64,000 nucleotides of DNA from Escherichia coli (GTDB taxonomy: Bacteria > Pseudomonadota > Gammaproteobacteria > Enterobacterales > Enterobacteriaceae): assembly GCF_044324785.1 (NCBI RefSeq), contig NZ_CP172127.1, one strand, 5' to 3'. How positions within the stretch are numbered: the stretch's first letter is position 1; every line of letters starts with the position of its first letter. Below are positions 1 through 16,898 of this stretch, piece after piece. The notes under the pieces were generated by a model. The model searched no databases and was not told the origin of the DNA. It worked only from the letters and a program-made list of their open reading frames with translations. The position numbers and the translations under genes are program-made.

Positions 1-1
1 A

Positions 2-574
2 GAGCAAAAAGAGGTGGTGAGCATTCTTGATAGCAGCAGCCGCAATTTGCAAAAGTTGATCGAACAACTGCTTGATTACAACCGTAAACAGGCGGACGGT
101 GCGGTGGAACTGGAGAATGTTGAGTTAGCGCCACTGGTGGAAATGGTGGTTTCTGCTCATAGCCTGCCCGCACGGGCTAAAATGATGCATACCGACGTCG
201 ATCTCAAAGCAACAGCTTGCCTGGCGGAGCCAATGCTGCTGATGAGCGTACTGGATAATCTTTACTCCAATGCGGTGCACTACGGGGCTGAATCCGGTAA
301 CATTTGCCTTCGCAGCAGTTTACATGGCGCGCGGGTTTATATTGATGTCATCAATACAGGCACACCCATTCCGCAAGAGGAACGCGCCATGATCTTTGAA
401 CCCTTTTTTCAGGGAAGCCACCAGCGAAAAGGGGCGGTGAAGGGCAGCGGTCTGGGATTAAGCATTGCCAGGGATTGTATTCGCCGTATGCAAGGGGAAC
501 TGTATCTGGTCGACGAGAGCGGGCAAGACGTTTGCTTCCGCATTGAATTGCCGTCGTCGAAAAACACGAAATAA
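2..574 (+). CDS. glrK: Sensor histidine kinase GlrK (QseE), C-terminal fragment; 5' end lies outside the window
   Basis: Open frame from window edge to stop at 574; translation has histidine-kinase ATPase motifs (NAVHYG N-box, GSGLGLSIA G-box); followed by qseG and glrR as in K-12. Confidence 0.85.
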   Translation, partial: EQKEVVSILDSSSRNLQKLIEQLLDYNRKQADGAVELENVELAPLVEMVVSAHSLPARAKMMHTDVDLKATACLAEPMLLMSVLDNLYSNAVHYGAESGNICLRSSLHGARVYIDVINTGTPIPQEERAMIFEPFFQGSHQRKGAVKGSGLGLSIARDCIRRMQGELYLVDESGQDVCFRIELPSSKNTK

Positions 575-732
575 TGCTAACAGCCTATCCCATCAGGCTA
601 TTTTATTTGCCAGTTTGGCCCTGGGCAGTGCTCGAAATCCTCACGTACGACGTGTACGCTCCGGTTTCTCCGCGCTGTCCATGTCCAGACTGCCTGCAAT
701 AATTACGCCCACTGGGATAGGCATTAAGTCTG

Positions 733-1452
733 GTGAATATGCGACACATTTTTCAACGATTATTGCCCCGACGGCTGTGGCTGGCAGGGCTGCCATGTCT
801 GGCATTGCTGGGTTGCGTGCAGAGTCACAATAAACCAGCCATTGATACGCCAGCAGAAGAAAAAATTCCGGTTTATCAACTGGCTGACTATCTTTCTACT
901 GAATGTAGCGACATCTGGGCGCTGCAAGGTAAATCAACCGAAACCAATCCGCTTTACTGGCTGCGGGCGATGGATTGTGCTGATCGTTTAATGCCTGCGC
1001 AGTCGCGTCAGCAAGCCCGCCAATATGATGACGGCAGCTGGCAAAATACCTTTAAACAAGGGATTTTGCTCGCCGATGCCAAAATTACGCCGTATGAGCG
1101 CCGCCAGCTGGTCGCGCGTATTGATGTGTTAAGTACCGAGATCCCGGCACAGGTTCGCCCACTGTATCAACTCTGGCGCGACGGTCAGGCGCTGCAACTG
1201 CAACTGGCGGAAGAGCGCCAACGCTACAGCAAACTTCAGCAGTCCAGCGACAGCGAGCTTGATACTTTGCGCCAGCAACATCACGTTCTACAACAGCAAC
1301 TGGAACTCACCACCCGCAAGCTGGAAAACCTGACCGATATTGAACGCCAGCTCTCGACCCGCAAACCGGCTGGAAATTTCTCGCCGGATACGCCGCACGA
1401 GGGTGAAAAGCCCGCGCCATCCACCCATGAGGTCACGCCTGATGAGCCATAA
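733..1452 (+). CDS. qseG: Outer-membrane lipoprotein QseG (YfhG)
   Basis: 239-aa ORF with signal peptide and lipobox (LLGC); Gln-rich coiled-coil C-terminus; position between glrK and glrR; true start may be the third codon (739). Confidence 0.8.
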   Translation: MNMRHIFQRLLPRRLWLAGLPCLALLGCVQSHNKPAIDTPAEEKIPVYQLADYLSTECSDIWALQGKSTETNPLYWLRAMDCADRLMPAQSRQQARQYDDGSWQNTFKQGILLADAKITPYERRQLVARIDVLSTEIPAQVRPLYQLWRDGQALQLQLAEERQRYSKLQQSSDSELDTLRQQHHVLQQQLELTTRKLENLTDIERQLSTRKPAGNFSPDTPHEGEKPAPSTHEVTPDEP

Positions 1453-2776
1453 ACCTGCGCATTTATTATTGGTCGATGACGATCCGGGATTGCTGAAACT
1501 GCTTGGCCTGCGTCTGACCAGCGAAGGCTACAGCGTGGTTACGGCGGAAAGTGGTGCTGAAGGATTACGGGTACTGAATCGCGAAAAAGTAGATTTAGTC
1601 ATCAGCGACCTGCGGATGGATGAAATGGACGGTATGCAGCTGTTTGCTGAAATCCAGAAAGTGCAGCCGGGAATGCCAGTAATTATTCTTACTGCGCATG
1701 GTTCTATTCCCGATGCCGTTGCTGCAACACAGCAGGGCGTTTTTAGTTTCCTCACCAAGCCTGTCGATAAAGACGCGCTATATCAGGCAATTGACGATGC
1801 GCTGGAACAATCCGCGCCAGCCACCGATGAACGCTGGCGCGAGGCGATTGTCACCCGCAGCCCGCTGATGCTGCGTTTGCTGGAACAGGCGCGGCTGGTG
1901 GCACAATCAGACGTTAGCGTTTTGATTAACGGCCAGAGCGGCACCGGGAAAGAGATTTTCGCCCAGGCTATCCACAACGCCAGCCCGCGCAACAGCAAAC
2001 CATTTATTGCTATTAACTGTGGTGCATTGCCCGAGCAATTGCTGGAGTCGGAGCTGTTTGGTCATGCGCGTGGAGCGTTTACTGGCGCTGTCAGCAATCG
2101 CGAAGGTTTATTCCAGGCGGCGGAAGGCGGTACGCTATTTCTCGATGAGATTGGCGATATGCCCGCACCGTTGCAGGTTAAACTGCTGCGCGTGTTGCAG
2201 GAGCGTAAAGTGCGCCCGCTGGGCAGTAACCGCGATATTGATATCGACGTGCGGATTATTTCTGCCACTCACCGCGACCTGCCAAAAGCGATGGCGCGCG
2301 GGGAATTCCGTGAAGATCTTTATTACCGCCTCAACGTTGTCAGCCTGAAAATTCCGGCACTGGCGGAGCGCACAGAAGACATTCCGCTACTGGCAAATCA
2401 CCTGTTGCGCCAGGCGGCAGAGCGACATAAACCGTTTGTCCGCGCGTTCTCTACCGATGCGATGAAACGCCTGATGACCGCGAGCTGGCCGGGTAATGTG
2501 CGCCAGTTGGTCAACGTGATTGAACAGTGCGTGGCGCTGACCTCATCTCCGGTGATTAGTGATGCGCTGGTGGAGCAGGCGCTGGAGGGTGAAAATACGG
2601 CGCTGCCAACCTTTGTTGAGGCACGTAATCAGTTTGAACTCAACTATTTGCGTAAGCTGCTGCAAATTACCAAAGGCAACGTCACCCACGCGGCGAGAAT
2701 GGCGGGGCGCAACCGGACAGAATTTTATAAACTGCTTTCCCGACACGAGCTGGATGCAAACGATTTCAAGGAATGA
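1442..2776 (+). CDS. glrR: Sigma-54-dependent response regulator GlrR (YfhA)
   Basis: Receiver domain (LLVDDDP), AAA+ sigma-54 activator motifs (GESGTGKE, GAFTGA), C-terminal HTH; start chosen at MSHKPAHLL giving 444 aa; overlaps qseG by 11 bp. Confidence 0.9.
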
Positions 2777-2800
2777 ATTGGCGTTATGTGTTACGTTTAG

Positions 2801-3175
<375 letters not shown>

Positions 3176-3187
3176 ACCGCGTCAAGG

Positions 3188-3213
3188 GTTGCCGGATGTT
3201 TCCATCCGGCAAC
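3188..3213. terminator. 11-bp stem-loop between the convergent glnB and hmp 3' ends; possible bidirectional terminator, no clear U-tract
   Basis: Inverted repeat gttgccggatg / catccggcaac with 4-nt loop seen directly in the sequence. Confidence 0.4.
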
Positions 3214-3219
3214 ATCAAA

Positions 3220-4410
3220 TCACAGCACCTTATGCGGGCCAAAGCATTCGTAATGAATGTTTTCCTGCTTCACGCCCAGATCCACTAACTGTTTCGCGGC
3301 AAACTGCATGAAGCCAACCGGGCCGCAGAGATAGAACTGCATTGTCGGATCGCTGAACGCACCTTCCAGTTTGCTCAAATCCATCAGACCTTCGCTATCA
3401 AACTGACCTTTAGCGCGATCGGCTTCGCTTGGCTGACGATACCAGGTGTGCGCGGTAAAGCGCGGCAGTGCTTGCCCCAGTTCCTTAACTTCATCGGCAA
3501 AGGCGTGAACATCGCCATTTTCTGCCGCATGGAACCAGTTCACTTGTGCTGTGTGGCCAGCTTTTGCCAGCGTGTCGAGCATTGCCAGCATTGGCGTTTG
3601 ACCGACACCGGCAGAGATTAACGTCACTGGTGTGTCATCTGCGACAGCCATAAAGAAATCACCTGCTGGAGCAACCAGTTTCACGACATCGCCAACATTG
3701 GCGTGATTGTGCAGCCAGTTGGATACCTGCCCGCCCTCTTCGCGTTTCACCGCAATACGATAGCCTTTGCCATCCGGTTTGCGAGTCAAAGAGTACTGAC
3801 GAATTTCCTGATGCGGGAAACCTTCCGGCTTCAGCCAGACGCCGAGATATTGCCCCGGACGGTATTCTGCCACTGCGCCACCGTCGACCGGCTCCAGTTC
3901 GAAGCTGGTGATAAGTGCGCTGCGCGGTGTTTTAGCCACAATGCGGAAATCGCGAGTACCTTCCCAGCCACCGGCTTTGCTGGCGTTTTCGTTATAGATT
4001 TCCGCCTCGCGATTGATAAATACATTAGCCAGTACGCCATAGGCTTTACCCCACGCGTCCAGCACTTCCTGGCCCGGGCTGAACATTTCGTCCAGCGTCG
4101 CCAACAGGTGTTCGCCGACGATGTTGTACTGTTCCGGTTTGATCTGGAAACTGGTGTGCTTCTGCGCGATTTTTTCTACCGCTGGCAGCAGCGCAGGCAG
4201 GTTTTCAATATTACTGGCGTAGGCGGCAATGGCGTTAAACAGGGCTTCACGTTGATCGCCATTACGCTGGTTACTCATGTTAAAAATTTCTTTGAGTTCT
4301 GGGTTATGAGTAAACATACGGTCGTAGAAATGGGCGGTTAACTTTGGCCCTGTTTCCACCAGTAAAGGGATGGTGGCTTTTACTGTAGCGATGGTTTGAG
4401 CGTCAAGCAT
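3220..4410 (-). CDS. hmp: Flavohemoglobin (nitric oxide dioxygenase)
   Basis: ORF beginning [17 protein letters not shown] (396 aa) with globin domain plus FAD/NAD reductase domain; the ORF-track N-terminal extension was trimmed to this Met. Confidence 0.95.
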
Positions 4411-4436
4411 ATGGTCTTCCTTTTTTTGCATCTTAA

Positions 4437-4459
4437 TTGATGTATCTCAAATGCATCTT
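4437..4459. promoter_or_regulatory. NsrR-type operator in the hmp promoter
   Basis: On the hmp strand the sequence reads AAGATGCATTTGAGATACATCAA, a near match to the NsrR box as I remember it, 27-49 bp upstream of the hmp start codon. Confidence 0.6.
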
Positions 4460-4737
4460 ATAAAAAATAGCCCTGCAATGTAAATGGTTCTTTGGTGTTT
4501 TTCAGAAAGAATGTGATGAAGTGAAAAATTTGCATCACAAACCTGAAAAGAAATCCGTTTCTGGTTGCAAGCTCTTTATTCTCCAAAGCCTTGCGCAGCC
4601 TGAAGGTAATCGTTTGCGTAAATTCCTTTGTCAAGACCTGTTATCGCACAATGATTCGGTTATACTGTTCGCCGTTGTCCAACAGGACCGCCTATAAAGG
4701 CCAAAAATTTTATTGTTAGCTGAGTCAGGAGATGCGG

Positions 4738-5991
4738 ATGTTAAAGCGTGAAATGAACATTGCCGATTATGATGCCGAACTGTGGCAGGCTATGGAGCAG
4801 GAAAAAGTACGTCAGGAAGAGCACATCGAACTGATCGCCTCCGAAAACTACACCAGCCCGCGCGTAATGCAGGCGCAGGGTTCTCAGCTGACCAACAAAT
4901 ATGCTGAAGGTTATCCGGGCAAACGCTACTACGGCGGTTGCGAGTATGTTGATATCGTTGAACAACTGGCGATCGATCGTGCGAAAGAACTGTTCGGTGC
5001 TGACTACGCTAACGTCCAGCCGCACTCCGGCTCCCAGGCTAACTTTGCGGTGTACACCGCGCTGCTGGAACCAGGTGATACCGTTCTGGGTATGAACCTG
5101 GCGCATGGCGGTCACCTGACTCACGGTTCTCCGGTTAACTTCTCCGGTAAACTGTACAACATCGTTCCTTACGGTATCGATGCTAGCGGTCATATCGACT
5201 ACGCCGATCTGGAAAAACAAGCCAAAGAACACAAACCGAAAATGATTATCGGTGGCTTCTCTGCATATTCCGGCGTGGTTGACTGGGCGAAAATGCGTGA
5301 AATCGCTGACAGCATCGGTGCTTACCTGTTCGTTGATATGGCGCACGTTGCGGGCCTGGTTGCTGCTGGCGTCTACCCGAACCCGGTTCCTCATGCTCAC
5401 GTTGTTACTACCACCACTCACAAAACCCTGGCGGGTCCGCGCGGTGGCCTGATCCTGGCGAAAGGTGGTAGCGAAGAGCTGTACAAAAAACTGAACTCTG
5501 CCGTTTTCCCTGGTGGTCAGGGCGGTCCGTTGATGCACGTAATCGCCGGTAAAGCGGTTGCTCTGAAAGAAGCGATGGAGCCTGAGTTCAAAACTTACCA
5601 GCAGCAGGTCGCGAAAAACGCTAAAGCGATGGTAGAAGTGTTCCTCGAGCGCGGCTACAAAGTGGTTTCCGGCGGTACTGATAACCACCTGTTCCTGGTT
5701 GATCTGGTTGATAAAAACCTGACCGGTAAAGAAGCTGACGCCGCTCTGGGCCGTGCTAACATCACCGTTAACAAAAACAGCGTACCGAACGATCCGAAGA
5801 GCCCGTTTGTGACCTCCGGTATTCGCGTGGGTACTCCGGCGATTACCCGTCGTGGCTTTAAAGAAGCCGAAGCGAAAGAACTGGCTGGCTGGATGTGTGA
5901 CGTGCTGGACAGCATCAATGATGAAGCGGTTATTGAGCGCATCAAAGGTAAAGTTCTCGACATCTGCGCACGTTACCCGGTTTACGCATAA
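4738..5991 (+). CDS. glyA: Serine hydroxymethyltransferase
   Basis: 417-aa [19 protein letters not shown]... with the PLP-lysine region ([14 protein letters not shown]); divergent from hmp. Confidence 0.95.
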
Positions 5992-6024
5992 GCGAAACGG
6001 TGATTTGCTGACAATGTGCTCGTT

Positions 6025-6048
6025 GTTCATGCCGGAAGCGGCATGAAC
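6025..6048 (+). terminator. 10-bp perfect stem-loop immediately downstream of glyA
   Basis: gttcatgccg gaag cggcatgaac; lies 34 bp after the glyA stop; the 3' flank (gcctta...) is not a U-tract. Confidence 0.45.
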
Positions 6049-6135
6049 GCCTTATCCGGCCTACAAAACTTTGCAAATTCAATATATTGCAATATCCGTG
6101 TAGGCCTGATAAGCGTAGTGCATCAGGCAATCTTA
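6049..6135. repeat. REP/BIME-type palindromic repeats between glyA and yphH
   Basis: Motifs gccttatccggcctaca and tgtaggcctgataagcgtagtgcatcaggca characteristic of enterobacterial REP elements. Confidence 0.6.
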
Positions 6136-6188
6136 GGTTTGTGATCATCAAGGCTTCCTTCGGGAAGCCTTTCTACGTTATTGCGCCA

Positions 6189-7382
6189 TCAAATCTGCCG
6201 TAACTGCGCCTCAACATACAAATAGCCAATTCCCAGCACCTGTTGTGCGCGGCTTAATTGCCCAAAGCCAATCTGTGTCGCTTTCACGCTCGGTCCTTCG
6301 TCGCGGTCGAAAGGGTTAAATCCCGTCTGGCGAATGATGGTATTAAGCCAGTTCTCACCAAAGGCACAACTGCGACCGTACAACCAAATCTGATTAATAT
6401 TGAGGATGTTGAGGAAGTTATACAGACTCAAACCAATGGCGTTGGCAGAGCGATCAACCCAACTGGTGATCCACGGTTCTCCACTCTGCCAGGCAGCGAT
6501 TAACTGCGCAGTAGTCAGTTTTTCAGGATCAAGCTGAGTATTAACCGGTTGTGATTTTAGCCATACCCGCGCCTGTTTTTTTAATGCGCTTAACGAGGCG
6601 ACGGTTTCCAGGCAGCCATAACGTCCGCAGTCGCAGACGACGCCATCCGGATTAACGATGGTGTGACCAATCTGTCCGCTACCATACAAACTGCCGCGAT
6701 AAATTTGCTCGTTAATCACGAACGACGAGCCAATGCCGTAATCAACGTTGATCACGCAGAAATCCCGGCCCTGCGAATTATTTTGCCATTTCTCCGCCAG
6801 CGCCAGCATCACGCAGTCATTATCGACCATCACCCGAATGCCGAGCTTCTCTTCCAGCAGATACTTTACCTCAACCGGCGTTGTCCACGGTGCTTGCGGC
6901 ATGGTTTGCGACACGCCAGTCACCGGATCAACCTGACCGTGGATTGCCAGCGCCAGGTTGATGGTACGGTCCGGCCACAATTTACGGTGGCGATGCCAGC
7001 ATTTTTCGATTTCGGACAGCAGCGCCTGCGGCGTCGGTGCATCAATCTGTAAATACTCAAATTCACCTTTCGGACTTAAACAGGCGTTAGCGACCTGACA
7101 CTCAATACTGGTGGGCGTCACGTTCAGGCACAGCGTCCAGTCACCTTCCGGCGCAATCAGCCATGTACCGCTACTATGCCCGCGCGTCTGGCTTTCATCG
7201 TCGATATTCACCACCCGTTTTTCGCTTTCCAGTTCCTGCAAAATATTACTGACCGCCGGAATCGAAATTTGCGCCAGCCGGGCCAGGGTTGATTTATTGG
7301 CGCGCTTTTGCCGGTACAGCAGTTCCAGAATCACGCATTTGTTATGGTGGCGAATCTGTTGATTATTAATGCAGGCTCTCAT
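6189..7382 (-). CDS. yphH: ROK-family (NagC/Mlc-like) transcriptional regulator
   Basis: About 397-aa ORF with N-terminal HTH and a ROK sugar-kinase-like fold (CxCGxxGC zinc motif: CDCGRYGCLE); divergent from yphG. Confidence 0.8.
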   Translation of the reverse strand: MRACINNQQIRHHNKCVILELLYRQKRANKSTLARLAQISIPAVSNILQELESEKRVVNIDDESQTRGHSSGTWLIAPEGDWTLCLNVTPTSIECQVANACLSPKGEFEYLQIDAPTPQALLSEIEKCWHRHRKLWPDRTINLALAIHGQVDPVTGVSQTMPQAPWTTPVEVKYLLEEKLGIRVMVDNDCVMLALAEKWQNNSQGRDFCVINVDYGIGSSFVINEQIYRGSLYGSGQIGHTIVNPDGVVCDCGRYGCLETVASLSALKKQARVWLKSQPVNTQLDPEKLTTAQLIAAWQSGEPWITSWVDRSANAIGLSLYNFLNILNINQIWLYGRSCAFGENWLNTIIRQTGFNPFDRDEGPSVKATQIGFGQLSRAQQVLGIGYLYVEAQLRQI

Positions 7383-7499
7383 CTTCACTAAACCTTGTTT
7401 AGTTAATTGCGTGATTATTCCGCGAAAACATTGCCAGATTGTTCAATACACTGCCACAAATCTTTTAATTCAGTATGTCTTGTTAATATTGAGGGCACC

Positions 7500-10400
7500 A
7501 TGACTCCAGTAAAAGTGTGGCAAGAGCGCGTTGAGATCCCGACCTATGAAACCGGGCCGCAGGATATACATCCCATGTTCCTGGAAAATCGCGTTTATCA
7601 GGGATCGTCCGGCGCGGTTTATCCCTACGGCGTGACCGATACGCTGAGCGAGCAGAAAACCCTGAAATCCTGGCAGGCGGTGTGGCTGGAAAACGACTAC
7701 ATCAAAGTGATGATCCTGCCGGAACTGGGCGGTCGGGTGCATCGCGCGTGGGATAAAGTGAAACAGCGCGATTTTGTCTATCACAATGAAGTCATTAAAC
7801 CGGCGCTGGTGGGGCTGCTGGGACCGTGGATCTCCGGCGGGATTGAGTTTAACTGGCCGCAACACCATCGCCCGACCACCTTTATGCCCGTTGATTTCAC
7901 CCTCGAAGCCCATGAAGACGGCGCACAGACGGTGTGGGTAGGCGAAACGGAGCCGATGCATGGTTTACAGGTGATGACAGGTTTCACCCTGCGTCCTGAC
8001 CGGGCGGCGCTGGAAATCGCCAGCCGCGTCTATAACGGCAACGCCACGCCGCGTCATTTCTTGTGGTGGGCCAACCCGGCAGTGAAAGGGGGTGAAGGGC
8101 ATCAGAGCGTTTTCCCACCGGATGTGACTGCGGTGTTTGATCACGGCAAACGGGCCGTCTCTGCTTTCCCCATCGCCACCGGCACTTACTACAAAGTGGA
8201 CTACTCCGCTGGAGTGGACATTTCTCGCTATAAAAATGTGCCTGTTCCAACCTCATATATGGCTGAAAAATCACAGTACGATTTTGTTGGCGCGTGGTGT
8301 CACGATGAAGATGGCGGTTTGCTGCACGTTGCCAACCACCATATTGCGCCAGGTAAAAAACAGTGGAGTTGGGGACACAGTGAATTTGGCCAGGCGTGGG
8401 ATAAGAGTCTGACCGACAATAACGGCCCGTATATCGAACTGATGACTGGTATTTTTGCCGATAACCAGCCCGATTTTACCTGGCTTGATGCTTACGAAGA
8501 GAAGCGTTTCGAGCAGTATTTCCTGCCTTATCATTCTCTGGGCATGGTGCAAAATGCCTCCCGCGATGCGGTGATAAAACTCCAGCGTAGTGAGCGGGGG
8601 ATTGAGTGGGGGCTGTATGCCATCTCTCCGTTGAACGGATACCGCCTGGCGATCCGCGAAATCGGCAAATGCAACGCGTTACTTGATGATGCCGTGGCCT
8701 TGACACCAGCGACCGCCATCCAGGGCGTGTTGCACGGTATCAATCCTGAAAGGCTGACCATTGAGCTCTCCGATGCCGACGGCAATATTGTACTGAGTTA
8801 TCAGGAACATCAGCCGCAAGAGTTGCCGTTGCCGGACGTCGCCAAAGCGCCACTGGCAGCACAAGACATTACCAGTACAGATGAAGCCTGGTTTATCGGT
8901 CAGCATCTGGAGCAATATCATCACGCCAGCCGTTCACCGTTCGATTACTACCTGCGCGGCGTGGCGCTGGATCCGCTGGATTATCGCTGTAATCTGGCGC
9001 TGGCGATGCTGGAATATAACCGCGCAGATTTCCTGCAAGCGGTGGCGTATGCCACTCAGGCGCTGAAACGCGCACATGCGCTGAACAAAAATCCGCAGTG
9101 CGGACAGGCGAGTTTGATTCGCGCCAGTGCTTACGAACGTCAGGGGCAATATCAACAAGCCGAAGAGGATTTCTGGCGTGCGGTCTGGAGCGGCAACAGT
9201 AAAGCCGGTGGCTATTATGGTCTGGCACGGCTGGCGGCGCGTAATGGTCACGTCGACGCTGGTCTGGATTTTTGCCAACAAAGTCTTCGCGCCTGCCCAA
9301 CCAATCAGGAAGTGCTTTGCCTGCATAATCTGCTGCTGGTGTTAAGTGGTCGTCAGGACAACGCGCGTTTGCAGCGTGAGAAACTGCTGCGTGATTATCC
9401 GCTGAACGCCACTCTGTGGTGGCTGAACTGGTTCGATGGTCGTAGCGAATCAGCCCTCGCGCAGTGGCGCAGTCTGTGTCAGGGACGCGACGTTAACGCC
9501 CTGATGACCGCCGGGCAACTGATTAACTGGGGAATGCCCACCCTGGCGGCAGAGATGCTGAACGCACTGGACTGCCAGCGCACGCTGCCGCTTTACTTGC
9601 AAGCCAGCATGCTGCCGAAAGCTGAACGCGGCGAACTGGTCACAAAAGCCATTTATGTCTTCCCGCAGTTTGTCCGTTTCCCGAATACGCTGGAAGAAGT
9701 GGCGGCGCTGGAGAGTATTGAAGAGTGCTGGTTTGCCCGTCATTTACTGGCCTGCTTCTACTACAACAAGCGCAGCTACAACAAAGCCATTACTTTATGG
9801 CAACGTTGCGTAGAGATGTCGCCGGAGTTTGCCGACGGCTGGCGCGGGTTAGCGATCCATGCGTGGAATAAGCAACACGATTATGAGCTGGCCGCGCGTT
9901 ATCTTGATAATGCTTATCAGCTTGCTCCGCAGGATGCACGTCTGCTTTTCGAACGGGATTTGCTGGATAAGTTAAGCGGAGCCACACCGGAGAAACGACT
10001 GGCGCGTCTGGAAAATAATCTGGAAATTGCGCTGAAACGCGACGACATGACCGCAGAACTGCTCAATTTGTGGCATCTCACGGGTCAAGCAGACAAAGCG
10101 GCGGACATTCTCGCCACGCGCAAATTCCACCCGTGGGAAGGCGGGGAAGGGAAGGTCACCAGTCAGTTTATCCTCAACCAGTTATTACGCGCCTGGCAGC
10201 ATCTTGATGCCAGAGAGCCGCAGCAGGCCAGCGAACTGCTTCATGCCGCGCTGCATTATCCGGAGAATTTAAGCGAAGGCCGTTTACCGGGGCAAACTGA
10301 CAACGACATCTGGTTCTGGCAGGCGATATGCGCCAACGCGCAGGGTGATGAAACTGAAGCGACGCGTTGTTTACGTCTGGCGGCGACTGGCGATCGCACC

Positions 10401-10781
10401 ATTAACATTCACAGTTATTACAACGATCAGCCGGTTGATTATCTCTTCTGGCAAGGAATGGCGCTGCGACTGCTGGGCGAACAACAAATCGCACAGCAAC
10501 TGTTTAGTGAAATGAAACAGTGGGCGCAAGAGATGGCGAAAACCAGTATCGAGGCGGATTTCTTTGCTGTTTCACAACCTGACCTGTTGTCGCTGTATGG
10601 CGATTTACAACAGCAGCATAAAGAAAAATGCCTGATGGTGGCGATGCTGGCGTCCGCGGGACTAGGGGAGGTTGCGCAATATGAATCTGCTCGTGCTGAA
10701 TTGACGGCGATTAATCCGGCCTGGCCGAAAGCAGCATTATTCACCACCGTGATGCCTTTTATTTTTAACCGCGTTCACTAA
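7500..10781 (+). CDS. yphG: Large conserved protein of unknown function with C-terminal TPR-like repeats
   Basis: Long ORF (1124 aa from 7407); start placed at MTPVKVW (7500), which has a GAGGG Shine-Dalgarno, giving 1093 aa; first gene of the yphGFEDCB block. Confidence 0.75.
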   Translation: MTPVKVWQERVEIPTYETGPQDIHPMFLENRVYQGSSGAVYPYGVTDTLSEQKTLKSWQAVWLENDYIKVMILPELGGRVHRAWDKVKQRDFVYHNEVIKPALVGLLGPWISGGIEFNWPQHHRPTTFMPVDFTLEAHEDGAQTVWVGETEPMHGLQVMTGFTLRPDRAALEIASRVYNGNATPRHFLWWANPAVKGGEGHQSVFPPDVTAVFDHGKRAVSAFPIATGTYYKVDYSAGVDISRYKNVPVPTSYMAEKSQYDFVGAWCHDEDGGLLHVANHHIAPGKKQWSWGHSEFGQAWDKSLTDNNGPYIELMTGIFADNQPDFTWLDAYEEKRFEQYFLPYHSLGMVQNASRDAVIKLQRSERGIEWGLYAISPLNGYRLAIREIGKCNALLDDAVALTPATAIQGVLHGINPERLTIELSDADGNIVLSYQEHQPQELPLPDVAKAPLAAQDITSTDEAWFIGQHLEQYHHASRSPFDYYLRGVALDPLDYRCNLALAMLEYNRADFLQAVAYATQALKRAHALNKNPQCGQASLIRASAYERQGQYQQAEEDFWRAVWSGNSKAGGYYGLARLAARNGHVDAGLDFCQQSLRACPTNQEVLCLHNLLLVLSGRQDNARLQREKLLRDYPLNATLWWLNWFDGRSESALAQWRSLCQGRDVNALMTAGQLINWGMPTLAAEMLNALDCQRTLPLYLQASMLPKAERGELVTKAIYVFPQFVRFPNTLEEVAALESIEECWFARHLLACFYYNKRSYNKAITLWQRCVEMSPEFADGWRGLAIHAWNKQHDYELAARYLDNAYQLAPQDARLLFERDLLDKLSGATPEKRLARLENNLEIALKRDDMTAELLNLWHLTGQADKAADILATRKFHPWEGGEGKVTSQFILNQLLRAWQHLDAREPQQASELLHAALHYPENLSEGRLPGQTDNDIWFWQAICANAQGDETEATRCLRLAATGDRTINIHSYYNDQPVDYLFWQGMALRLLGEQQIAQQLFSEMKQWAQEMAKTSIEADFFAVSQPDLLSLYGDLQQQHKEKCLMVAMLASAGLGEVAQYESARAELTAINPAWPKAALFTTVMPFIFNRVH

Positions 10782-10877
10782 ACCTTATTAACTGTAATAT
10801 TTGAGCGGCACGCGCTGCCGCTCACGCTCAAATAATTAAAATAAGCCGTTGTAAATAAAAACCCTACAGGAGGCACT

Positions 10878-11861
10878 ATGCCTAAAAAAATGAGAACAAC
10901 CCGTAATCTATTATTAATGGCTACGCTATTAGGTAGCGCACTATTCGCCAGGGCTGCGGATAAAGAAATGACCATTGGCGCAATATACCTTGATACCCAG
11001 GGATATTACGCTGGCGTGCGTCAGGGCGTTCAGGATGCGGCAAAAGATTCTTCAGTACAGGTACAGTTAATTGAAACTAACGCCCAGGGTGATATTTCGA
11101 AAGAAAGTACCTTTGTTGATACCCTCGTGGCGCGTAATGTCGATGCCATTATTTTATCGGCAGTGTCTGAAAATGGCAGTAGCCGTACCGTTCGTCGCGC
11201 CAGTGAAGCGGGTATTCCGGTGATTTGCTACAACACCTGTATTAATCAAAAAGGCGTCGATAAATATGTCTCGGCGTATCTGGTCGGCGATCCGCTGGAA
11301 TTTGGTAAAAAACTGGGTAACGCTGCCGCCGATTATTTTATTGCCAACAAAATTGACCAGCCGAAAATTGCCGTTATCAATTGCGAAGCCTTTGAAGTTT
11401 GTGTGCAACGACGTAAAGGGTTTGAAGAAGTATTAAAAGCCCGCGTTCCCGGCGCGCAAATTGTCGCTAATCAGGAAGGGACTGTTTTAGATAAAGCGAT
11501 TTCCGTTGGTGAAAAACTAATTATCTCCACGCCGGATCTCAACGCCATTATGGGCGAATCGGGCGGTGCGACACTCGGCGCGGTAAAAGCGGTACGTAAT
11601 CAAAATCAGGCCGGAAAAATTGCTGTTTTCGGTTCTGATATGACCACTGAAATTGCTCAGGAGCTGGAAAACAACCAGGTGCTGAAAGCGGTGGTGGATA
11701 TTTCCGGTAAGAAAATGGGCAATGCTGTTTTCGCGCAAACTTTGAAGGTTATCAATAAACAAGCCGACGGTGAAAAAGTGATTCAGGTGCCTATCGATCT
11801 CTATACCAAAACGGAAGACGGTAAACAGTGGCTGGCAACGCACGTTGATGGTCTGCCCTAA
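10878..11861 (+). CDS. yphF: Periplasmic sugar-binding protein of an ABC transporter
   Basis: 327-aa ORF with signal peptide (MRTTRNLLLMATLLGSALFARA) and periplasmic-binding-protein fold features. Confidence 0.85.
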   Translation: MPKKMRTTRNLLLMATLLGSALFARAADKEMTIGAIYLDTQGYYAGVRQGVQDAAKDSSVQVQLIETNAQGDISKESTFVDTLVARNVDAIILSAVSENGSSRTVRRASEAGIPVICYNTCINQKGVDKYVSAYLVGDPLEFGKKLGNAAADYFIANKIDQPKIAVINCEAFEVCVQRRKGFEEVLKARVPGAQIVANQEGTVLDKAISVGEKLIISTPDLNAIMGESGGATLGAVKAVRNQNQAGKIAVFGSDMTTEIAQELENNQVLKAVVDISGKKMGNAVFAQTLKVINKQADGEKVIQVPIDLYTKTEDGKQWLATHVDGLP

Positions 11862-11883
11862 TCGCTGATTCGCAGAGGTCCCT

Positions 11884-13395
11884 ATGTTCACGGCAACAGA
11901 GGCAGTCCCGGTAGCAAAAGTGGTGGCAGGAAATAAGCGTTATCCCGGCGTCGTTGCGTTGGATAACGTTAACTTCACGCTCAATAAAGGCGAAGTTCGT
12001 GCGCTGTTAGGCAAAAACGGCGCGGGCAAATCGACCCTCATTCGAATGCTTACCGGTAGCGAACGTCCGGATAGCGGTGATATCTGGATTGGCGAGACGT
12101 GACTGGAAGGTGACGAAGCTACGCTGACTCGCCGTGCCGCTGAACTGGGGGTACGCGCGGTTTATCAGGAGTTAAGTCTGGTGGAAGGGCTGACGGTGGC
12201 GGAAAACCTCTGCCTCGGTCAATGGCCCCGCCGCAACGGCATGATTGATTACCCGCAAATGGCGCAGGATGCCCAACGTTGCTTACTGGCGCTGGGCGTT
12301 GACGTTAGTCCTGAACAACTTGTTTCAACACTAAGCCCGGCGCAAAAGCAGCTGGTGGAAATTGCGCGGGTGATGAAAGGCGAGCCGCGCGTGGTCATTC
12401 TTGATGAACCTACCAGTTCGCTTGCCAGTGCGGAAGTTGAACTGGTGATCAGCGCGGTTAAAAAGATGTCGGCACTGGGCGTGGCGGTGATTTATGTCAG
12501 CCACCGGATGGAAGAAATTCGCCGCATTGCCTCCTGTGCCACCGTTATGCGCGATGGTCAGGTGGCGGGCGATGTGATGCTCGAAAACACCTCCACGCAT
12601 CATATTGTGTCGCTAATGCTCGGGCGCGATCACGTTGATATTGCGCCGGTTTCCCCTCAGGAAATTGTCGATCAGGCCGTGCTGGAAGTCCGTGCGTTAC
12701 GCCATAAGCCCAAGCTGGAGGATATCAGCTTTACGCTCCGTCGTGGCGAAGTACTCGGCATTGCTGGCCTGCTGGGGGCAGGGCGCAGTGAATTGTTGAA
12801 AGCCATAGTTGGGCTGGATACGTATGAACAGGGCGAAATTGTTATCAACGGCGAGAAAATCACGCGCCCCGATTACGGCGACATGCTGAAACGCGGCATT
12901 GGCTATACGCCAGAAAACCGCAAAGAAGCGGGGATCATTCCCTGGCTGGGCGTTGACGAAAATACGGTGCTGACCAATCGGCAAAAAATCAGCGCCAACG
13001 GTGTGCTGCAATGGTCCACCATCCGCCGCCTGACCGAAGAGGTGATGCAGCGGATGACGGTCAAGGCCGCCAGTAGCGAAACGCCCATCGGCACGCTTTC
13101 TGGCGGCAATCAGCAAAAAGTGGTGATCGGTCGTTGGGTCTATGCCGCCAGCCAGATTTTGTTGCTCGACGAGCCAACGCGTGGCGTCGATATCGAAGCC
13201 AAACAGCAGATTTACCGTATTGTCCGCGAGCTGGCTGCCGAAGGAAAAAGCGTGGTGTTTATCTCCAGTGAAGTGGAGGAGTTGCCGCTGGTGTGTGACC
13301 GCATCCTGTTATTACAGCACGGCACGTTCTCGCAGGAGTTTCACGCTCCGGTCAATGTGGATGAGCTGATGTCCGCCATTCTGTCTGTGCACTGA
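11884..13395 (+). pseudogene. yphE: Sugar ABC transporter ATP-binding protein with duplicated ABC domains, interrupted by an in-frame TGA at 12100-12102 (codon 73)
   Basis: ORFs 11884..12102 and 12181..13395 are in the same frame; the 26 codons between them have no stop and read as ABC ATPase sequence; Walker [10 protein letters not shown] lies upstream of the stop; uninterrupted length would be 503 aa. Confidence 0.7.
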
Positions 13396-13419
13396 TGAAT
13401 TTTACCGAGGAACCTGAAG

Positions 13420-14418
13420 ATGTCTGCTTCGTCATTACCATTGCCGCAGGGCAAGAGCGTCTCGCTCAAACAATTTGTCAGTCGCCATATTAATGAGATC
13501 GGTTTGCTGGTGGTGATTGCCATTCTTTATCTGGTCTTCTCCCTGAACGCGCCTGGCTTTATCTCATTGAATAACCAGATGAACGTGCTGCGCGATGCCG
13601 CCACCATCGGGATCGCCGCCTGGGCGATGACGCTGATTATTATCTCTGGTGAAATTGATGTCAGCGTTGGGCCGATGGTGGCTTTTGTCTCGGTGTGCCT
13701 GGCATTTTTGCTGCAATTTGAAGTTCCGCTGGCGGTGGCGTGTCTGCTGGTGTTGCTGTTAGGCGCGCTGATGGGAACGCTGGCCGGGGTGCTGCGCGGC
13801 GTGTTTAACGTACCAAGTTTCGTGGCCACGCTGGGGCTGTGGAGCGCCCTGCGCGGAATGGGGCTGTTTATGACCAACGCACTGCCAGTGCCGATTGACG
13901 AAAATGAGGTGTTGGACTGGTTGGGGGGACAATTTCTCGGTGTGCCGGTATCTGCGCTGATCATGATGGTGCTGTTTGCGCTGTTTGTGTTCATTAGCCG
14001 CAAAACCGCCTTCGGGCGCTCGGTTTTTGCCGTTGGCGGTAATGCCACGGCGGCGCAGTTATGCGGTATTAACGTTCGTCGGGTACGCATTCTTATTTTT
14101 ACCCTTTCGGGATTATTAGCAGCGGTGACCGGCATTTTGTTGGCGGCGCGCCTCGGTTCTGGTAACGCAGGTGCGGCAAACGGTCTGGAGTTTGACGTCA
14201 TCGCCGCGGTCGTGGTCGGCGGTACGGCACTTTCCGGCGGTCGCGGTTCCCTGTTCGGTACATTGCTTGGTGTGCTGGTGATTACGCTAATCGGTAACGG
14301 TCTGGTGCTGCTCGGTATTAACTCCTTTTTCCAGCAGGTGGTACGCGGCGTCATCATCGTGGTGGCGGTGCTGGCGAATATCTTGCTGACCCAGCGAAGC
14401 AGTAAAGCGAAACGCTAA
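13420..14418 (+). CDS. yphD: ABC transporter permease (ribose/monosaccharide type)
   Basis: 332-aa highly hydrophobic multi-pass protein directly downstream of the ATPase gene. Confidence 0.85.
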   Translation: MSASSLPLPQGKSVSLKQFVSRHINEIGLLVVIAILYLVFSLNAPGFISLNNQMNVLRDAATIGIAAWAMTLIIISGEIDVSVGPMVAFVSVCLAFLLQFEVPLAVACLLVLLLGALMGTLAGVLRGVFNVPSFVATLGLWSALRGMGLFMTNALPVPIDENEVLDWLGGQFLGVPVSALIMMVLFALFVFISRKTAFGRSVFAVGGNATAAQLCGINVRRVRILIFTLSGLLAAVTGILLAARLGSGNAGAANGLEFDVIAAVVVGGTALSGGRGSLFGTLLGVLVITLIGNGLVLLGINSFFQQVVRGVIIVVAVLANILLTQRSSKAKR

Positions 14419-14483
14419 ACCTTAACGCCCCTGGCGCGGGTGCGGCAGGGATGAAAATTAATCGTATTGTTAATGAGGGATTT

Positions 14484-15545
14484 ATGAAAACGATGCTGGC
14501 AGCTTATTTACCAGGAAATTCGACCGTCGATCTGCGGGAAGTTGCGGTGCCGACGCCGGGGATTAACCAGGTACTGATCAAAATGAAATCCTCCGGAATT
14601 TGCGGAAGCGATGTCCACTATATCTACCACCAGCACCGCGCTACGGCGGCGGCACCCGATAAACCGTTATACCAGGGATTTATCAACGGTCATGAACCGT
14701 GCGGGCAAATTGTGGCGATGGGGCAAGGCTGCCGCCATTTTAAAGAGGGCGACCGTGTGCTGGTGTATCATATTTCTGGCTGTGGTTTTTGCCCGAACTG
14801 CCGTCGTGGTTTTCCTATCTCTTGTACTGGCGAAGGAAAAGCGGCTTACGGCTGGCAGCGTGACGGCGGCCATGCTGAATACCTGCTGGCGGAAGAAAAA
14901 GATCTGATCCTGCTCCCGGACGCGCTGAGCTATGAAGATGGTGCGTTTATCAGTTGCGGCGTTGGTACAGCGTATGAAGGGATTTTGCGCGGCGAAGTTT
15001 CCGGCAGTGATAACGTGCTGGTGGTCGGTCTGGGGCCGGTCGGCATGATGGCGATGATGCTGGCGAAAGGTCGCGGTGCAAAACGGATCATCGGCGTTGA
15101 TATGCTGCCGGAACGTCTGGCGATGGCAAAACAGTTAGGGGTGATGGATCACGGCTATTTAGCGACCACCGAAGGTCTGCCGCAGATAATTGCTGAACTT
15201 ACCCACGGTGGCGCGGATGTTGCGCTCGATTGTTCTGGTAATGCCGCAGGTCGCTTGCTGGCACTGCGATCCACCGCTGACTGGGGACGGGTGGTTTACA
15301 TCGGAGAAACCGGAAAAGTGGAGTTCGAGGTCAGCGCCGATCTGATGCACCATCAACGGCGGATTATCGGCTCCTGGGTGACCAGTCTGTTCCATATGGA
15401 AAAATGCGCCCATGATCTGACGGACTGGAAACTGTGGCCGCGTAACGCCATTACCCATCGCTTCACGCTGGAACAGGCAGGTGATGCCTATGCGCTGATG
15501 GCGAGCGGCAAATGCGGGAAAGTTGTGATTAACTTCCCGGATTAA
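14484..15545 (+). CDS. yphC: Zinc-dependent alcohol/polyol dehydrogenase (MDR family)
   Basis: GHE zinc-ligand motif (GHEPCG), structural-zinc Cys cluster (CGFCPNCRRG), Rossmann motif (VVGLGPVG); start chosen at MKTMLAAYL (353 aa). Confidence 0.85.
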   Translation: MKTMLAAYLPGNSTVDLREVAVPTPGINQVLIKMKSSGICGSDVHYIYHQHRATAAAPDKPLYQGFINGHEPCGQIVAMGQGCRHFKEGDRVLVYHISGCGFCPNCRRGFPISCTGEGKAAYGWQRDGGHAEYLLAEEKDLILLPDALSYEDGAFISCGVGTAYEGILRGEVSGSDNVLVVGLGPVGMMAMMLAKGRGAKRIIGVDMLPERLAMAKQLGVMDHGYLATTEGLPQIIAELTHGGADVALDCSGNAAGRLLALRSTADWGRVVYIGETGKVEFEVSADLMHHQRRIIGSWVTSLFHMEKCAHDLTDWKLWPRNAITHRFTLEQAGDAYALMASGKCGKVVINFPD

Positions 15546-15556
15546 GGAGTTAGCGG

Positions 15557-16429
15557 ATGACCATCTATACCTTGTCCCACGGGTCGCTAAAGCTGGGCGT
15601 TTCTGACCAGGGCGGCGTAATCGAAGGCTTCTGGCGCGATACGACGCCGCTCTTACGTCCTGGTAAAAAAAGCGGTGTGGCAACCGATGCCTCTTGTTTT
15701 CCGCTGGTGCCATTTGCAAACCGGGTGAGCGGCAACCGTTTTGTCTGGCAGGGGCGTGAGTATCAACTGCAACCGAATGTTGAGTGGGATGCGCACTATC
15801 TGCACGGCGACGGCTGGCTGGGGCAGTGGCAATGTGTCTCGCGCAGCGAAGATAGCTTGTGTCTGGTGTATGAACATCGCAGCGGTGTTTATCACTATCG
15901 GGTAAGTCAGGCGTTTCATTTAACGGCGGATACGCTGACGGTGACGCTCTCTGTCACCAATCAAGGGGCAGAGACGCTGCCATTTGGTACCGGCTGGCAT
16001 CCTTATTTTCCGTTGTCACCACAAACGCGGATTCAGGCGCAGGCGAGCGGTTACTGGCTGGAGCGGGAGCAGTGGCTGGCGGGTGAGTTTTGCGAGCAGC
16101 TACCGCAGGAGCTGGATTTCAACCAGCTCGCGCCGTTGCCGCACCAGTGGGTAAACAATGGCTTTGCCGGATGGAATGGTCAGGCCCGCATCGAGCAGCC
16201 GCAGGAGGGTTATGCCATCATCATGGAAACGACGCCACCTGCACCATGTTATTTCATCTTTGTTTCCGACCCGGCGTTTGATAAAGGATATGCGTTTGAT
16301 TTCTTCTGTCTGGAACCGATGAGCCATGCGCCGGATGACCATCATCGCCCGGAAGGGGGTGATCTCATTGCGCTTGCACCAGGGGAATCAACAACTTCAG
16401 AGATGTCGTTGCGGGTTGCGTTACTGTAA
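15557..16429 (+). CDS. yphB: Aldose 1-epimerase family protein
   Basis: 290-aa ORF in the sugar-utilisation cluster; assigned from gene order and length rather than a specific motif. Confidence 0.8.
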   Translation: MTIYTLSHGSLKLGVSDQGGVIEGFWRDTTPLLRPGKKSGVATDASCFPLVPFANRVSGNRFVWQGREYQLQPNVEWDAHYLHGDGWLGQWQCVSRSEDSLCLVYEHRSGVYHYRVSQAFHLTADTLTVTLSVTNQGAETLPFGTGWHPYFPLSPQTRIQAQASGYWLEREQWLAGEFCEQLPQELDFNQLAPLPHQWVNNGFAGWNGQARIEQPQEGYAIIMETTPPAPCYFIFVSDPAFDKGYAFDFFCLEPMSHAPDDHHRPEGGDLIALAPGESTTSEMSLRVALL

Positions 16430-16437
16430 TTTATAAA

Positions 16438-16471
16438 ATGCCGGATAAGGCGTTCACGCCGCATCCGGCAT
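16438..16471. repeat. REP element between the convergent yphB and yphA
   Basis: Palindrome atgccggataaggcgttcacgccgcatccggcat. Confidence 0.5.
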
Positions 16472-16475
16472 GTTT

Positions 16476-16898
16476 TTAACGCCGATCGAGAGAAATTGCC
16501 CCCGGCCCGGTAATTGCCAACAGCAGGAATGCGCCAGCGATACTGACATTCTTCCAGAAATTAATCATATTTGGCCCAACCGCATCGCCGGTCATATCCC
16601 AGTAATGGTGACCAATTACCGCTGTACCCAGCGTGTAGAAAATAAACAGCACCGCCAGCGGACGGGTGAAAAAGCCAAGCACGATTAATATCGCGGCGGG
16701 CACTTCCATAACTACCGCAATAATCGCTGCCAGCATCGGCATTGGCGCGCCCAGCGAGGCCATATATTGGACCGTACCGTCAAAACCCATCATTTTGGGA
16801 AAACCAAAAATAATGAAAATTAAGACCACGGCGATACGGGCAATTAATAACAAAACGGGGCGTGCAGCACCAAAATCAAAATAACGTAGTGAGTTCAT
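16476..16898 (-). CDS. yphA: DoxX-family inner membrane protein
   Basis: Hydrophobic 140-aa protein starting [10 protein letters not shown]; the ORF-track upstream extension (MPGAWRG...) was rejected. Confidence 0.8.

Follow-up and report, generated by a model that had tools for sequence, protein, structure and literature searches.

The conserved yph locus of Escherichia coli as a composite of two gene modules with a possible role in the use of galacto-configured sugars

Positions 6189 to 16898 of a 64,000-nucleotide stretch of Escherichia coli DNA (contig NZ_CP172127.1, assembly GCF_044324785.1; hereafter the window) hold the standard yph locus, flanked by glyA on one side and hcaD on the other. 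Genes were called from the open reading frame (ORF) listing, Pfam matches, and colinearity with the RefSeq-annotated chromosome of E. coli VCSW7, and their order matches that of the annotated yph locus in this strain (Table 1). The block is present at 80% coverage or more in 5,370 of 5,426 complete E. coli genomes, and the window as a whole is E. coli-type chromosome, 98 to 99% identical to sequenced strains and identical to none. Gene calls and Pfam agreed with an earlier interpretation of the letters alone (the sequence-only reading), which had recognized a carbohydrate-utilization locus with a binding protein, an ATPase, a permease, a Zn-dehydrogenase, an epimerase, and a ROK regulator. It had also called the locus a known unknown and its largest protein, YphG, a protein of no assigned function. 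Indeed, a full-text literature search found no paper assigning a substrate to yph or a role to YphG or its DUF5107 domain, the RefSeq names are generic, and neither NCBIfam nor RefSeq annotation gave a substrate. Since the locus is already catalogued and ubiquitous, its sequence is in itself no discovery. What is new is its split into two modules, the fold of YphG, the pattern of YphG neighbors, and a testable functional hypothesis for a conserved operon.

Table 1. Features of the yph locus (positions in the window)
Feature	Position	Strand	Remark
yphH, ROK-family transcription regulator	6189..7382	-	397 aa from ATG at 7382; mechanical ORF reaches GTG at 7388
yphH-yphG divergent intergenic region, 117 bp	7383..7499	.	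presumed promoters and putative YphH operator
yphG, 1093-aa cytoplasmic DUF5107 and TPR protein, intact	7500..10781	+	Pfam
YphG residues 1-345, aldose-1-epimerase (galactose-mutarotase) fold domain with non-canonical conserved site	7500..8534	+	
YphG residues 357-435, small all-beta linker domain	8568..8804	+	
YphG residues 460-1092, TPR-type alpha-superhelix with conserved polar positions and FHPWEGGEG loop (876-884)	8877..10775	+	
yphF, periplasmic sugar-binding protein of CUT2-type ABC transporter	10878..11861	+	Peripla_BP_4
yphE, fused double-NBD ABC ATPase gene, inactivated by nonsense codon	11884..13395	+	ABC_tran twice in intact reference
TGA stop, yphE codon 73 (CGA>TGA), context ACG TGA CTG	12100..12102	+	
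yphD, ABC permease	13420..14418	+	BPD_transp_2
yphC, Zn-dependent medium-chain dehydrogenase, proposed NAD+-dependent aldose 1-dehydrogenase	14451..15545	+	ADH_N and ADH_zinc_N
yphB, aldose 1-epimerase family protein	15557..16429	+	Aldose_epim
yphA, DoxX-family inner-membrane protein	16476..16898	-	DoxX

The transport genes were analyzed by family models. YphF matched Peripla_BP_4 (115.9 bits), its orthologues carry a Sec-type signal peptide, and its ratio of nonsynonymous to synonymous substitution rates (dN/dS) is 0.016. Its best relatives in the PDB were the ribose, galactofuranose (YtfQ), galactose, and allose binding proteins, none of them close. YphD matched BPD_transp_2 (123.6 bits) and differs from the VCSW7 reference at 30 nucleotides but at no amino acid. 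A Peripla_BP_4 protein, an ATPase of about 500 aa with two nucleotide-binding domains (NBDs), and a BPD_transp_2 permease in one operon constitute a CUT2-type importer. YphFED shares this three-part architecture with the E. coli CUT2 importers AraFGH, MglBAC, RbsACB, AlsBAC, XylFGH, and YtfQRT-YjfF and gives partial scores to all their models. Unlike these systems, however, it stays below every equivalog cutoff, and its ATPase is truncated here at codon 73. Among the NCBIfam models of the named E. coli sugar ABC systems (Ara, Xyl, Als, Mgl, Rbs, Ytf, and Lsr), the best were AlsB for YphF (64 versus a cutoff of 335), AraG for YphE (454 versus 689), and RbsC for YphD (227 versus 398). Since all these cutoffs were widely missed, the Yph importer appears to have a distinct specificity. 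In line with this, none of the eight yph proteins reached an NCBIfam equivalog.

The two enzymes encoded downstream of the transport genes belong to clear families. YphC matched ADH_N, ADH_zinc_N, and Glu_dehyd_C (41.4 bits; cutoff, 34.9), and its translation holds the motifs GICGSD, GHEPCG, CGFCPNCRRGFPISC, and GLGPVG...GVD. We take the Cys of GICGSD and the His and Glu of GHEPCG to be the catalytic Zn ligands and CGFCPNCRRGFPISC to be the structural Cys4 lobe; GLGPVG...GVD is presumably the NAD-type Rossmann motif. Judged from these motifs, YphC is a Zn-dependent medium-chain dehydrogenase/reductase (MDR) with both Zn sites apparently intact. YphB scored 180.8 bits against Aldose_epim (cutoff, 27), which places it in the aldose 1-epimerase family, and it is essentially identical to PDB entry 3NRE, E. 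coli b2544 (675.8 bits).

YphH matched the ROK model (113 bits), and its residues 18 to 55 gave a weak MarR-type winged helix-turn-helix match (21 bits, below the cutoff of 24.6). Like repressors of the Mlc/NagC type, it combines a ROK domain with an N-terminal winged-helix region, and its gene is divergent from the operon that it presumably controls. Unlike them, it scored only 110 and 108 bits against the NagC and Mlc models, the equivalog cutoffs of which are 650 and 530, and in most other phyla an AraC-family regulator replaces the ROK protein. By these scores, YphH is a ROK-family protein that is neither NagC nor Mlc. It differs from the VCSW7 orthologue by 4 amino acids (dN/dS, 0.08), and yphH is divergent from yphG in 13 of 13 proteobacterial loci sampled. 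The intergenic region is conserved at 85% mean column identity among Escherichia, E. albertii, Enterobacter sp., RIT691, and Budvicia, whereas the flanking proteins are only 58 to 83% identical across these genomes. It contains an inverted repeat, TTCACTAAAC/GTTTAGTTAA, at 7384 to 7406. A consensus sigma-70 scan found no promoter in 7383 to 7499, inspection by eye revealed no convincing CRP site or Mlc/NagC-type operator there, and promoter and terminator scans of the locus were no better than shuffles (7 versus 8.4 and 20 versus 14.1, respectively). YphH may bind an operator in this region and repress the operon.

The most informative protein of the locus is YphG. A search of 1.84 billion cluster representatives (E of 1e-30 or lower) yielded 1,142 that match it, most of them full length at about 1,100 aa and 27 to 45% identical. 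Residues 39 to 324 match positions 5 to 281 of the 310-position DUF5107 model (Pfam PF17128; 188.9 bits versus a cutoff of 24.4), and the C-terminal region matches the tetratricopeptide repeat (TPR) models TPR_16, TPR_2, TPR_14, and TPR_1. An AlphaFold2 model built from an 80-sequence alignment (pLDDT, 95.1; pTM, 0.92) resolved the three domains listed in Table 1, the helical one being interrupted by a non-helical stretch at residues 874 to 884. In a fold search, all best matches of the N-terminal domain were real mutarotases, which identifies it as a mutarotase beta-sandwich. The helical region matched the superhelices of OGT, SPINDLY, Ctr9, Ski3, and designed CTPR proteins; it is not an (alpha/alpha)6 barrel. 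Structure prediction combined with a fold search had been suggested along with the sequence-only reading, and the description of YphG as TPR-like given there holds for the superhelix but not for the first 345 residues or so.

Although the fold is that of a mutarotase, the sequence is not. The N-terminal domain had no Aldose_epim match in Pfam, and its profile aligned with GalM-like and YphB-like alignments at an hhalign probability of only 0.4%, compared with 96% for stand-alone DUF4432-like proteins. Proteins of the latter kind, about 330 aa long, are encoded beside YphG in Paenibacillus and Ruminiclostridium (L035, 13303-14301; L048, 7853-8851; L049, 13318-14292; L numbers denote loci sampled in this work). 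They share the motifs LPELGG and FLW..(H/N)P with the YphG domain and bridge it to canonical epimerases. The catalytic set of GalM comprises His96, His170, and Glu304 (L. lactis numbering). In the DUF4432-like alignment, the canonical mutarotase His of FLWaaHP corresponds to Asn192 of YphG, and the His of the HGE motif falls in a gap. In the 80-sequence alignment, N65, N179, and E313 are invariant in the N-terminal domain, and H122, H123, R124, N192, H215, K286, K287, D306, and D325 are at least 90% conserved. E313 lies near the C-terminal end of the beta domain, about where GalM has its catalytic Glu, an equivalence by position only. In the helical part, A554 and R782 are invariant, and Q472, Y483, D491, W563, E818, F876, E880, and G881 are at least 90% conserved. 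Thus, unlike GalM and its relatives YeaD, YphB, and hexose-6-phosphate mutarotase, YphG lies outside their sequence models, carries a different conserved set (H123, H215, K287, and E116), and has its domain fused to a beta linker and some 630 residues of TPR. The N-terminal domain looks like it holds a real but non-canonical sugar-processing site.

The closest solved relative of YphG, and the only close one, is PDB entry 5CD6 (BDI_1685 of Parabacteroides distasonis, a "TPR-domain containing protein" from structural genomics). E116, H123, N192, H215, K287, and E313 of YphG are also present in this 580-aa protein, but the C-terminal 500 or so TPR residues of YphG, with R782, E818, and the FHPWEGGEG loop, are not. 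The full-text literature search found no published function for 5CD6/BDI_1685.

We then considered the genomic neighborhoods of YphG, a check that had also been suggested with the sequence-only reading. A scan of one genome per species gave at least 597 YphG loci. The best 80 were analyzed: ORFs were called and clustered, and cluster representatives were annotated. These loci span Enterobacterales, Aeromonas, Photobacterium, Bacteroidota, Firmicutes, and Bifidobacterium. In 43 of the 80, a Sugar_tr transporter of the major facilitator superfamily (MFS; XylE-like, 313 bits) accompanies YphG at a median distance of 66 bp, most often directly upstream. AraC regulators, mostly divergent, occur in 51 loci; in 13 loci, all proteobacterial, a ROK regulator takes their place. 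A glycoside hydrolase (GH) of family GH2, about 935 aa long, lies near YphG in 32 loci (median gap, 110 bp); the representative tested scored 1,086 bits against PDB entry 8U01 of subfamily GH2_20, for which beta-galactosidase activity on decorated xyloglucan or rhamnogalacturonan II has been reported (PMC12243196). GH35 enzymes are found near YphG in 11 loci, GalM-like epimerases in 8, and GH36, a GH36-like family, GH97, GH95, and GH31 in 3 to 6 loci each; marine flavobacterial loci add sulfatases and GDSL esterases. Altogether, 47 of the 67 non-proteobacterial loci hold a galactosidase-type GH or GalM. In some Firmicutes, a CUT2 ABC system takes the place of the MFS transporter, and its binding protein is closest to AraF, a binder of arabinose, galactose, and D-fucose.

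No kinase, aldolase, or isomerase travels with YphG in the 80 loci. Furthermore, a scan of 92 unannotated neighbors of YphG homologs found 146 Pfam families, none of them in more than 3 neighbors, so there is no further recurrent partner. An hcaT-like MFS gene beside what we termed type-2 clusters was rejected as a functional partner, because synteny explains the adjacency. In Bacteroidota, signal peptides are found on the glycosidases but on neither YphG nor GalM; the Firmicutes counterparts of all these proteins are cytoplasmic. Distant DUF5107-TPR homologs (L084, 4168-8279; L085, 10001-13390; L086, 10001-13303; protein cluster P0259), on the other hand, carry signal or lipoprotein signal peptides and lie inside polysaccharide utilization loci (PULs) among GH16, GH3, sulfatases, and esterases. 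One of them is followed by a module of carbohydrate-binding family CBM9, one is fused to CBM9, and one is fused to an EEP phosphoesterase domain. By their sequences and neighborhoods, DUF5107-TPR proteins are a large uncharacterized family tied to glycan-utilization loci. The size and phylum-spanning distribution of this family, together with its consistent galactosidase and sugar-transporter neighborhood, provide a usable lead on the function of YphG.

The remaining genes of the operon have a history of their own. Via YphC homologs of 61 to 66% identity, we reached three loci, in Acidisoma cellulosilytica (L087), Vibrio nigripulchritudo (L088), and L091, that hold a colinear yphFEDCB-like block without yphG and without a ROK gene. 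Compared with the E. coli proteins, the substrate-binding proteins are 49 to 53%, the ATPases 53 to 56%, the permeases 65 to 68%, the dehydrogenases 61 to 66%, and the epimerases 41 to 45% identical. In all three, the block adjoins a GntR/FCD regulator and an MR_MLE (enolase-superfamily) enzyme, and these enzymes score 577, 339, and 342 bits against the NCBIfam galactonate dehydratase equivalog (cutoff, 311). L091 additionally encodes an SGL-type lactonase, and L087 and L091 each encode a short-chain dehydrogenase/reductase (SDR).

Both parts meet in L090, a metagenome-assembled genome of 64% GC (1723-10978), in which an AraC gene is divergent from a yphG-like gene followed by the FEDCB block. 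This is the E. coli order with another regulator. Its YphG is 36% and its FEDCB proteins are 46 to 68% identical to those of E. coli; with L090 included, the ranges become 49 to 60% for binding proteins, 65 to 68% for permeases, and 41 to 46% for epimerases. The L090 ATPase gene is split into 174 and 315 aa, a break that could reflect either a true lesion or misassembly. The YphC and YphB homolog genes are paired in all four loci and abut or overlap in L087 and L088. A second Enterobacterales variant at the same chromosomal position has yphA and yphH on one strand and, divergently, yphG followed by an MFS gene and an epimerase gene. Judged from this comparison, two evolutionary modules, yphH-yphG and yphFEDCB, have been combined in the E. 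coli locus. The invariant set appears to be a transporter, YphG, and a mutarotase, and the E. coli version is one in which the MFS transporter seems to have been swapped for an ABC system that brings a dehydrogenase. The term "self-contained," used for the locus in the sequence-only reading, does not apply to such a composite, which also encodes no kinase, dehydratase, or aldolase. Enterobacter sp. BIGb0383, RIT691, and Budvicia diplopodorum (L006, L007, and L008) have an extra XylE-like MFS gene directly after the yphB homolog, and thus both an ABC and an MFS route.

The contexts of the yphFEDCB-like blocks and the neighbors of YphG are two independent signals that converge on galacto-configured sugars. 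We therefore tentatively propose, at a little less than an even chance, that the yph locus serves the YphH-controlled uptake and conversion of a galacto-configured aldose, with YphG as a carbohydrate-active partner. D-Galactose would most likely be the substrate; D-fucose and L-arabinose have the same ring configuration. In this scheme, YphF, YphE, and YphD would take up the aldose, the mutarotase YphB would supply the needed anomer, and YphC, as an NAD+-dependent Zn dehydrogenase, would oxidize C1 to yield the aldonolactone or aldonate. The aldonate would then enter a galactonate-type dehydratase, kinase, and aldolase route encoded elsewhere. In E. coli, this would be the dgo route, the genes of which are absent from the window.

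YphG, the cytoplasmic partner that is retained across phyla and in which the mutarotase-fold domain packs against the TPR superhelix, would act upstream of the oxidation, binding the imported sugar at or near its anomeric center for a preparatory conversion. It may release free galactose from a small imported galactoside or from a modified galactose as a hydrolase-like or converting enzyme, a role that is possible but well short of probable. Interconversion of ring forms or anomers is a doubtful second option; a non-catalytic sensor or scaffold and some entirely different function are each unlikely, and to the same degree. The presence of secreted DUF5107-TPR homologs in PULs and the CBM9 fusion argue for a carbohydrate-active rather than a regulatory role. 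A lactonase function, which would fill a gap in the scheme, was considered for YphG and rejected: in most phyla, YphG occurs without any dehydrogenase, and the blocks of L087 and L088 lack YphG. A broader extension of the proposal is speculative and rather doubtful. It holds that the approximately 1,100 DUF5107-TPR clusters are unrecognized carbohydrate-active enzymes acting on galactose-containing small glycosides or modified galactose by a remodeled His/His/Glu/Lys site and a TPR clamp with a conserved loop. Cytoplasmic forms would work behind monosaccharide-type transporters and secreted forms in PULs, and in E. coli the enzyme would feed an oxidative galactose route from YphB and YphC via galactonate to Dgo.

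The proposed route resembles De Ley-Doudoroff and other oxidative aldose pathways in that it joins a mutarotase and a dehydrogenase to a sugar importer, and in that the five-gene block lies beside a GntR/FCD regulator and a galactonate-dehydratase-model enzyme in three other bacteria. It differs from them in several respects. A lactonase, a dehydratase (DgoD), a kinase (DgoK), and an aldolase (DgoA) are absent from 6189 to 16898, and the locus is thus not a complete system of this type. The usual bacterial galactose dehydrogenases are of the SDR or GFO type, and MDR-type aldose dehydrogenases are best known from archaea, e.g., Sulfolobus; YphC, in contrast, is a Zn-dependent MDR enzyme known here from its sequence.

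Several observations weigh against the proposal. The full-text literature search found no experiment or paper tying any yph gene to galactose or galactonate. E. coli galK mutants fail to grow on galactose, which means that the operon is not expressed in that situation or that the true substrate is something other than D-galactose. There is no lactonase in the E. coli yph locus, and the galactonate-dehydratase adjacency was seen in three loci only, with two enzymes narrowly past the cutoff. XylE-like MFS and CUT2 transporters normally carry free monosaccharides, a poor fit with a glycosidase role of YphG. The 8 loci with both GalM and YphG make a plain mutarotase role redundant, and YphG falls outside Aldose_epim with its canonical His apparently replaced. 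Furthermore, a 64%-identical YphC homolog (L094, 3274-10053, and L095) is encoded with a CUT2 ABC system and a GMC oxidoreductase but with no epimerase, and two homologs of 58 to 59% identity (L089 and L092) stand in unrelated contexts. The L094/L095 operon also holds a 141-aa small subunit beside the GMC-family flavoprotein oxidoreductase.

Some of these points could indicate another class of substrate, i.e., a polyol, a cyclitol, or a non-galacto sugar, with YphC acting as a secondary-alcohol dehydrogenase of the sorbitol, xylitol, or inosose type and with the galactosidase context of YphG not transferable to E. coli. By score, the closest named relatives of YphC are L-threonine 3-dehydrogenase (170 bits), the scyllo-inosose 3-dehydrogenase IolM (168 bits), and xylitol and sorbitol dehydrogenases. 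In addition, YphF is about equidistant from ribose, allose, galactose, rhizopine, and galactofuranose binders, the L094/L095 homolog lacks an epimerase partner, and E. coli-type YphG is only 36 to 43% identical to the homologs with galactosidase neighbors. However, all named matches of YphC are far below their equivalog cutoffs, and the dehydrogenase adjoins an aldose 1-epimerase in four independent lineages, with overlapping genes in two. An epimerase makes sense only for a cyclic hemiacetal, so this adjacency counts against a polyol-type substrate. Moreover, three of the four lineages have a galactonate-dehydratase-model enzyme and one has a lactonase, and this context converges with that of YphG on galacto-configured sugars. 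Overall, we consider another substrate class unlikely.

Slightly less probable again is that YphG is no enzyme but a sugar-sensing scaffold, in which the mutarotase-like domain binds the sugar and the TPR part binds a protein partner to modulate uptake or transcription. True TPR repeats, a fold that usually mediates contacts between proteins, make up about 630 of its residues; the canonical His is apparently lost, no CAZy-type or NCBIfam catalytic family is matched, and a regulator nearly always adjoins the gene (AraC in 51 and ROK in 13 of 80 loci). The regulator type varies while YphG stays, though, which argues against a fixed partner. The conserved positions are rich in His, Glu, Asp, Lys, Asn, and Trp, as is typical of a catalytic or sugar-binding site, and reach into the loop of the helical domain. 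The pTM of 0.92 suggests a compact single body rather than an open docking solenoid, and distant homologs with signal peptides, in the enzyme slots of PULs and with CBM9 or EEP fusions, are hard to square with cytoplasmic regulation.

It is quite improbable that YphG is no more than an oversized mutarotase for galactose or arabinose, acting like GalM to equilibrate anomers once the sugar has been taken up. The fold matches, the approximate placement of the invariant E313 at the catalytic Glu of GalM, and the position of yphG directly behind the transporter gene in many of the 43 loci with a monosaccharide transporter would be in line with such a function. Nevertheless, at least 24 loci (13 enterobacterial) encode, next to YphG, a cytoplasmic epimerase of the GalM, YphB-like, or DUF4432-like kind, in which case YphG would be redundant. 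Furthermore, Asn192 stands opposite the canonical His in the alignment, such a role leaves unexplained 750 additional residues whose length and polar positions are conserved, and secreted homologs sit in PULs.

Finally, we addressed the ATPase gene, for which the sequence-only reading had reported a premature stop and concluded that the locus may be decaying. The stop was confirmed: codon 73 of yphE is TGA, where the VCSW7 reference has CGA (Arg). This R73* change is the sole in-frame stop across the eight yph genes, and all genes except yphE are intact. The gene has the length of the 503-aa reference and differs from it by 3 amino acids including R73*. A 61-nucleotide probe centered on the stop had no exact match in 5,264 complete E. 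coli genomes, and its best matches, among the matches listed, all had one mismatch (98.4%). Since the probe is unmatched elsewhere, the stop is private to this strain or its lineage. It falls after the first Walker A region, which we placed near residues 40 to 47 from an AAA_21 P-loop match at 40 to 56. The longest remaining ORF starts with GTG at 12181 and encodes 404 aa without the first Walker A, so the importer should be inactive. By this reasoning, R73* should abolish or severely reduce ABC uptake in this strain, and its importer is probably dead through one recent mutation. UGA followed by C is the weakest (leakiest) termination context in E. coli, and some residual read-through is therefore conceivable.

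The conclusion of decay was weakened by further comparison. Against the VCSW7 orthologues, dN/dS lies between 0.00 and 0.12 for each of the eight genes, and the part of yphE behind the stop gives 0.13. These values point to strong purifying selection, and a single private stop in such a setting indicates a recent single lesion and not general decay. Sporadic, independent lesions of yphG occur in other E. coli: in strain SCPM-O-B-8794 (L004, 2286-5657), the gene is split into 841 and 244 aa, and protein clusters P0002, P0028, and P0038 represent truncated forms of 955, 741, and 643 aa. IS1397 is inserted between yphB and yphA in several strains (e.g., L093, 10500-11848, E. coli AF39), where it disrupts no gene. 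In published data, YphF protein increased together with other carbon-scavenging binding proteins on levoglucosan versus fructose (PMC8753852), and yphF, yphG, and yphA are in a microarray list of differentially expressed genes (PMC2868799). Other incidental mentions, as a K. pneumoniae PCR marker and as a phagotrophy-associated orthogroup in stramenopiles, give no function. It is thus very improbable that yph has no present function and survives as a cryptic or decaying relic, whether in this strain or across E. coli: the yphE stop, the split or truncated yphG genes, and the lack of a yph phenotype in the full-text literature search would fit, but the locus is nearly ubiquitous and under low dN/dS, the stop is unique to this sequence, IS1397 sits between genes, and YphF is expressed and rises with other carbon-scavenging transporters (PMC8753852, PMC2868799).

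The private yphE stop is of local interest only, and YphG is the more valuable part of the locus. As members of the E. coli "y-ome," the yph genes occur in about 99% of strains, are under purifying selection, and have no known role. The module split and the link to galacto-configured sugars turn the vague label of a putative sugar transporter into specific hypotheses on the substrate range of YphC, the ligand of YphF, and the dependence on dgo. The YphG family extends to gut Bacteroidota, Firmicutes, and bifidobacteria and to soil and marine bacteria, where it stands beside beta-galactosidases for xyloglucan and pectin side chains. If YphG is catalytic, it would represent a missing step in the use of plant galactans by gut and soil bacteria and a candidate new enzyme family.

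With respect to the surroundings of the operon, YphA scored 73.3 bits against DoxX (cutoff, 23.6) and is thus a DoxX-family protein. Its gene is convergent to yphB in E. coli, lies on the opposite side adjoining yphH in other Enterobacterales (L007, L012, and L016), and was found in none of the non-enterobacterial loci sampled. It is probably a syntenic neighbor outside the functional unit, and a functional tie to the operon is unsupported. A 429-aa ORF at 4741 to 6030 on the minus strand, antisense to nearly all of glyA (4732 to 5991 on the plus strand), is most likely a mechanical shadow ORF. Regions 1 to 6188 and 41001 to 64000 are 99.0 to 99.1% identical to E. coli strain N3, whereas the best matches of the yph block reach no more than 98.1% and come from other strains (soil and dog) than those of the flanks; this contrast suggests a recombination mosaic. 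The region from 41001 to 64000, with sinH, the gene of an adhesion-domain protein, yfhM, and pbpC, reached at least 80% coverage in only 1,681 of 5,426 E. coli genomes and is a variable segment beside a core region.

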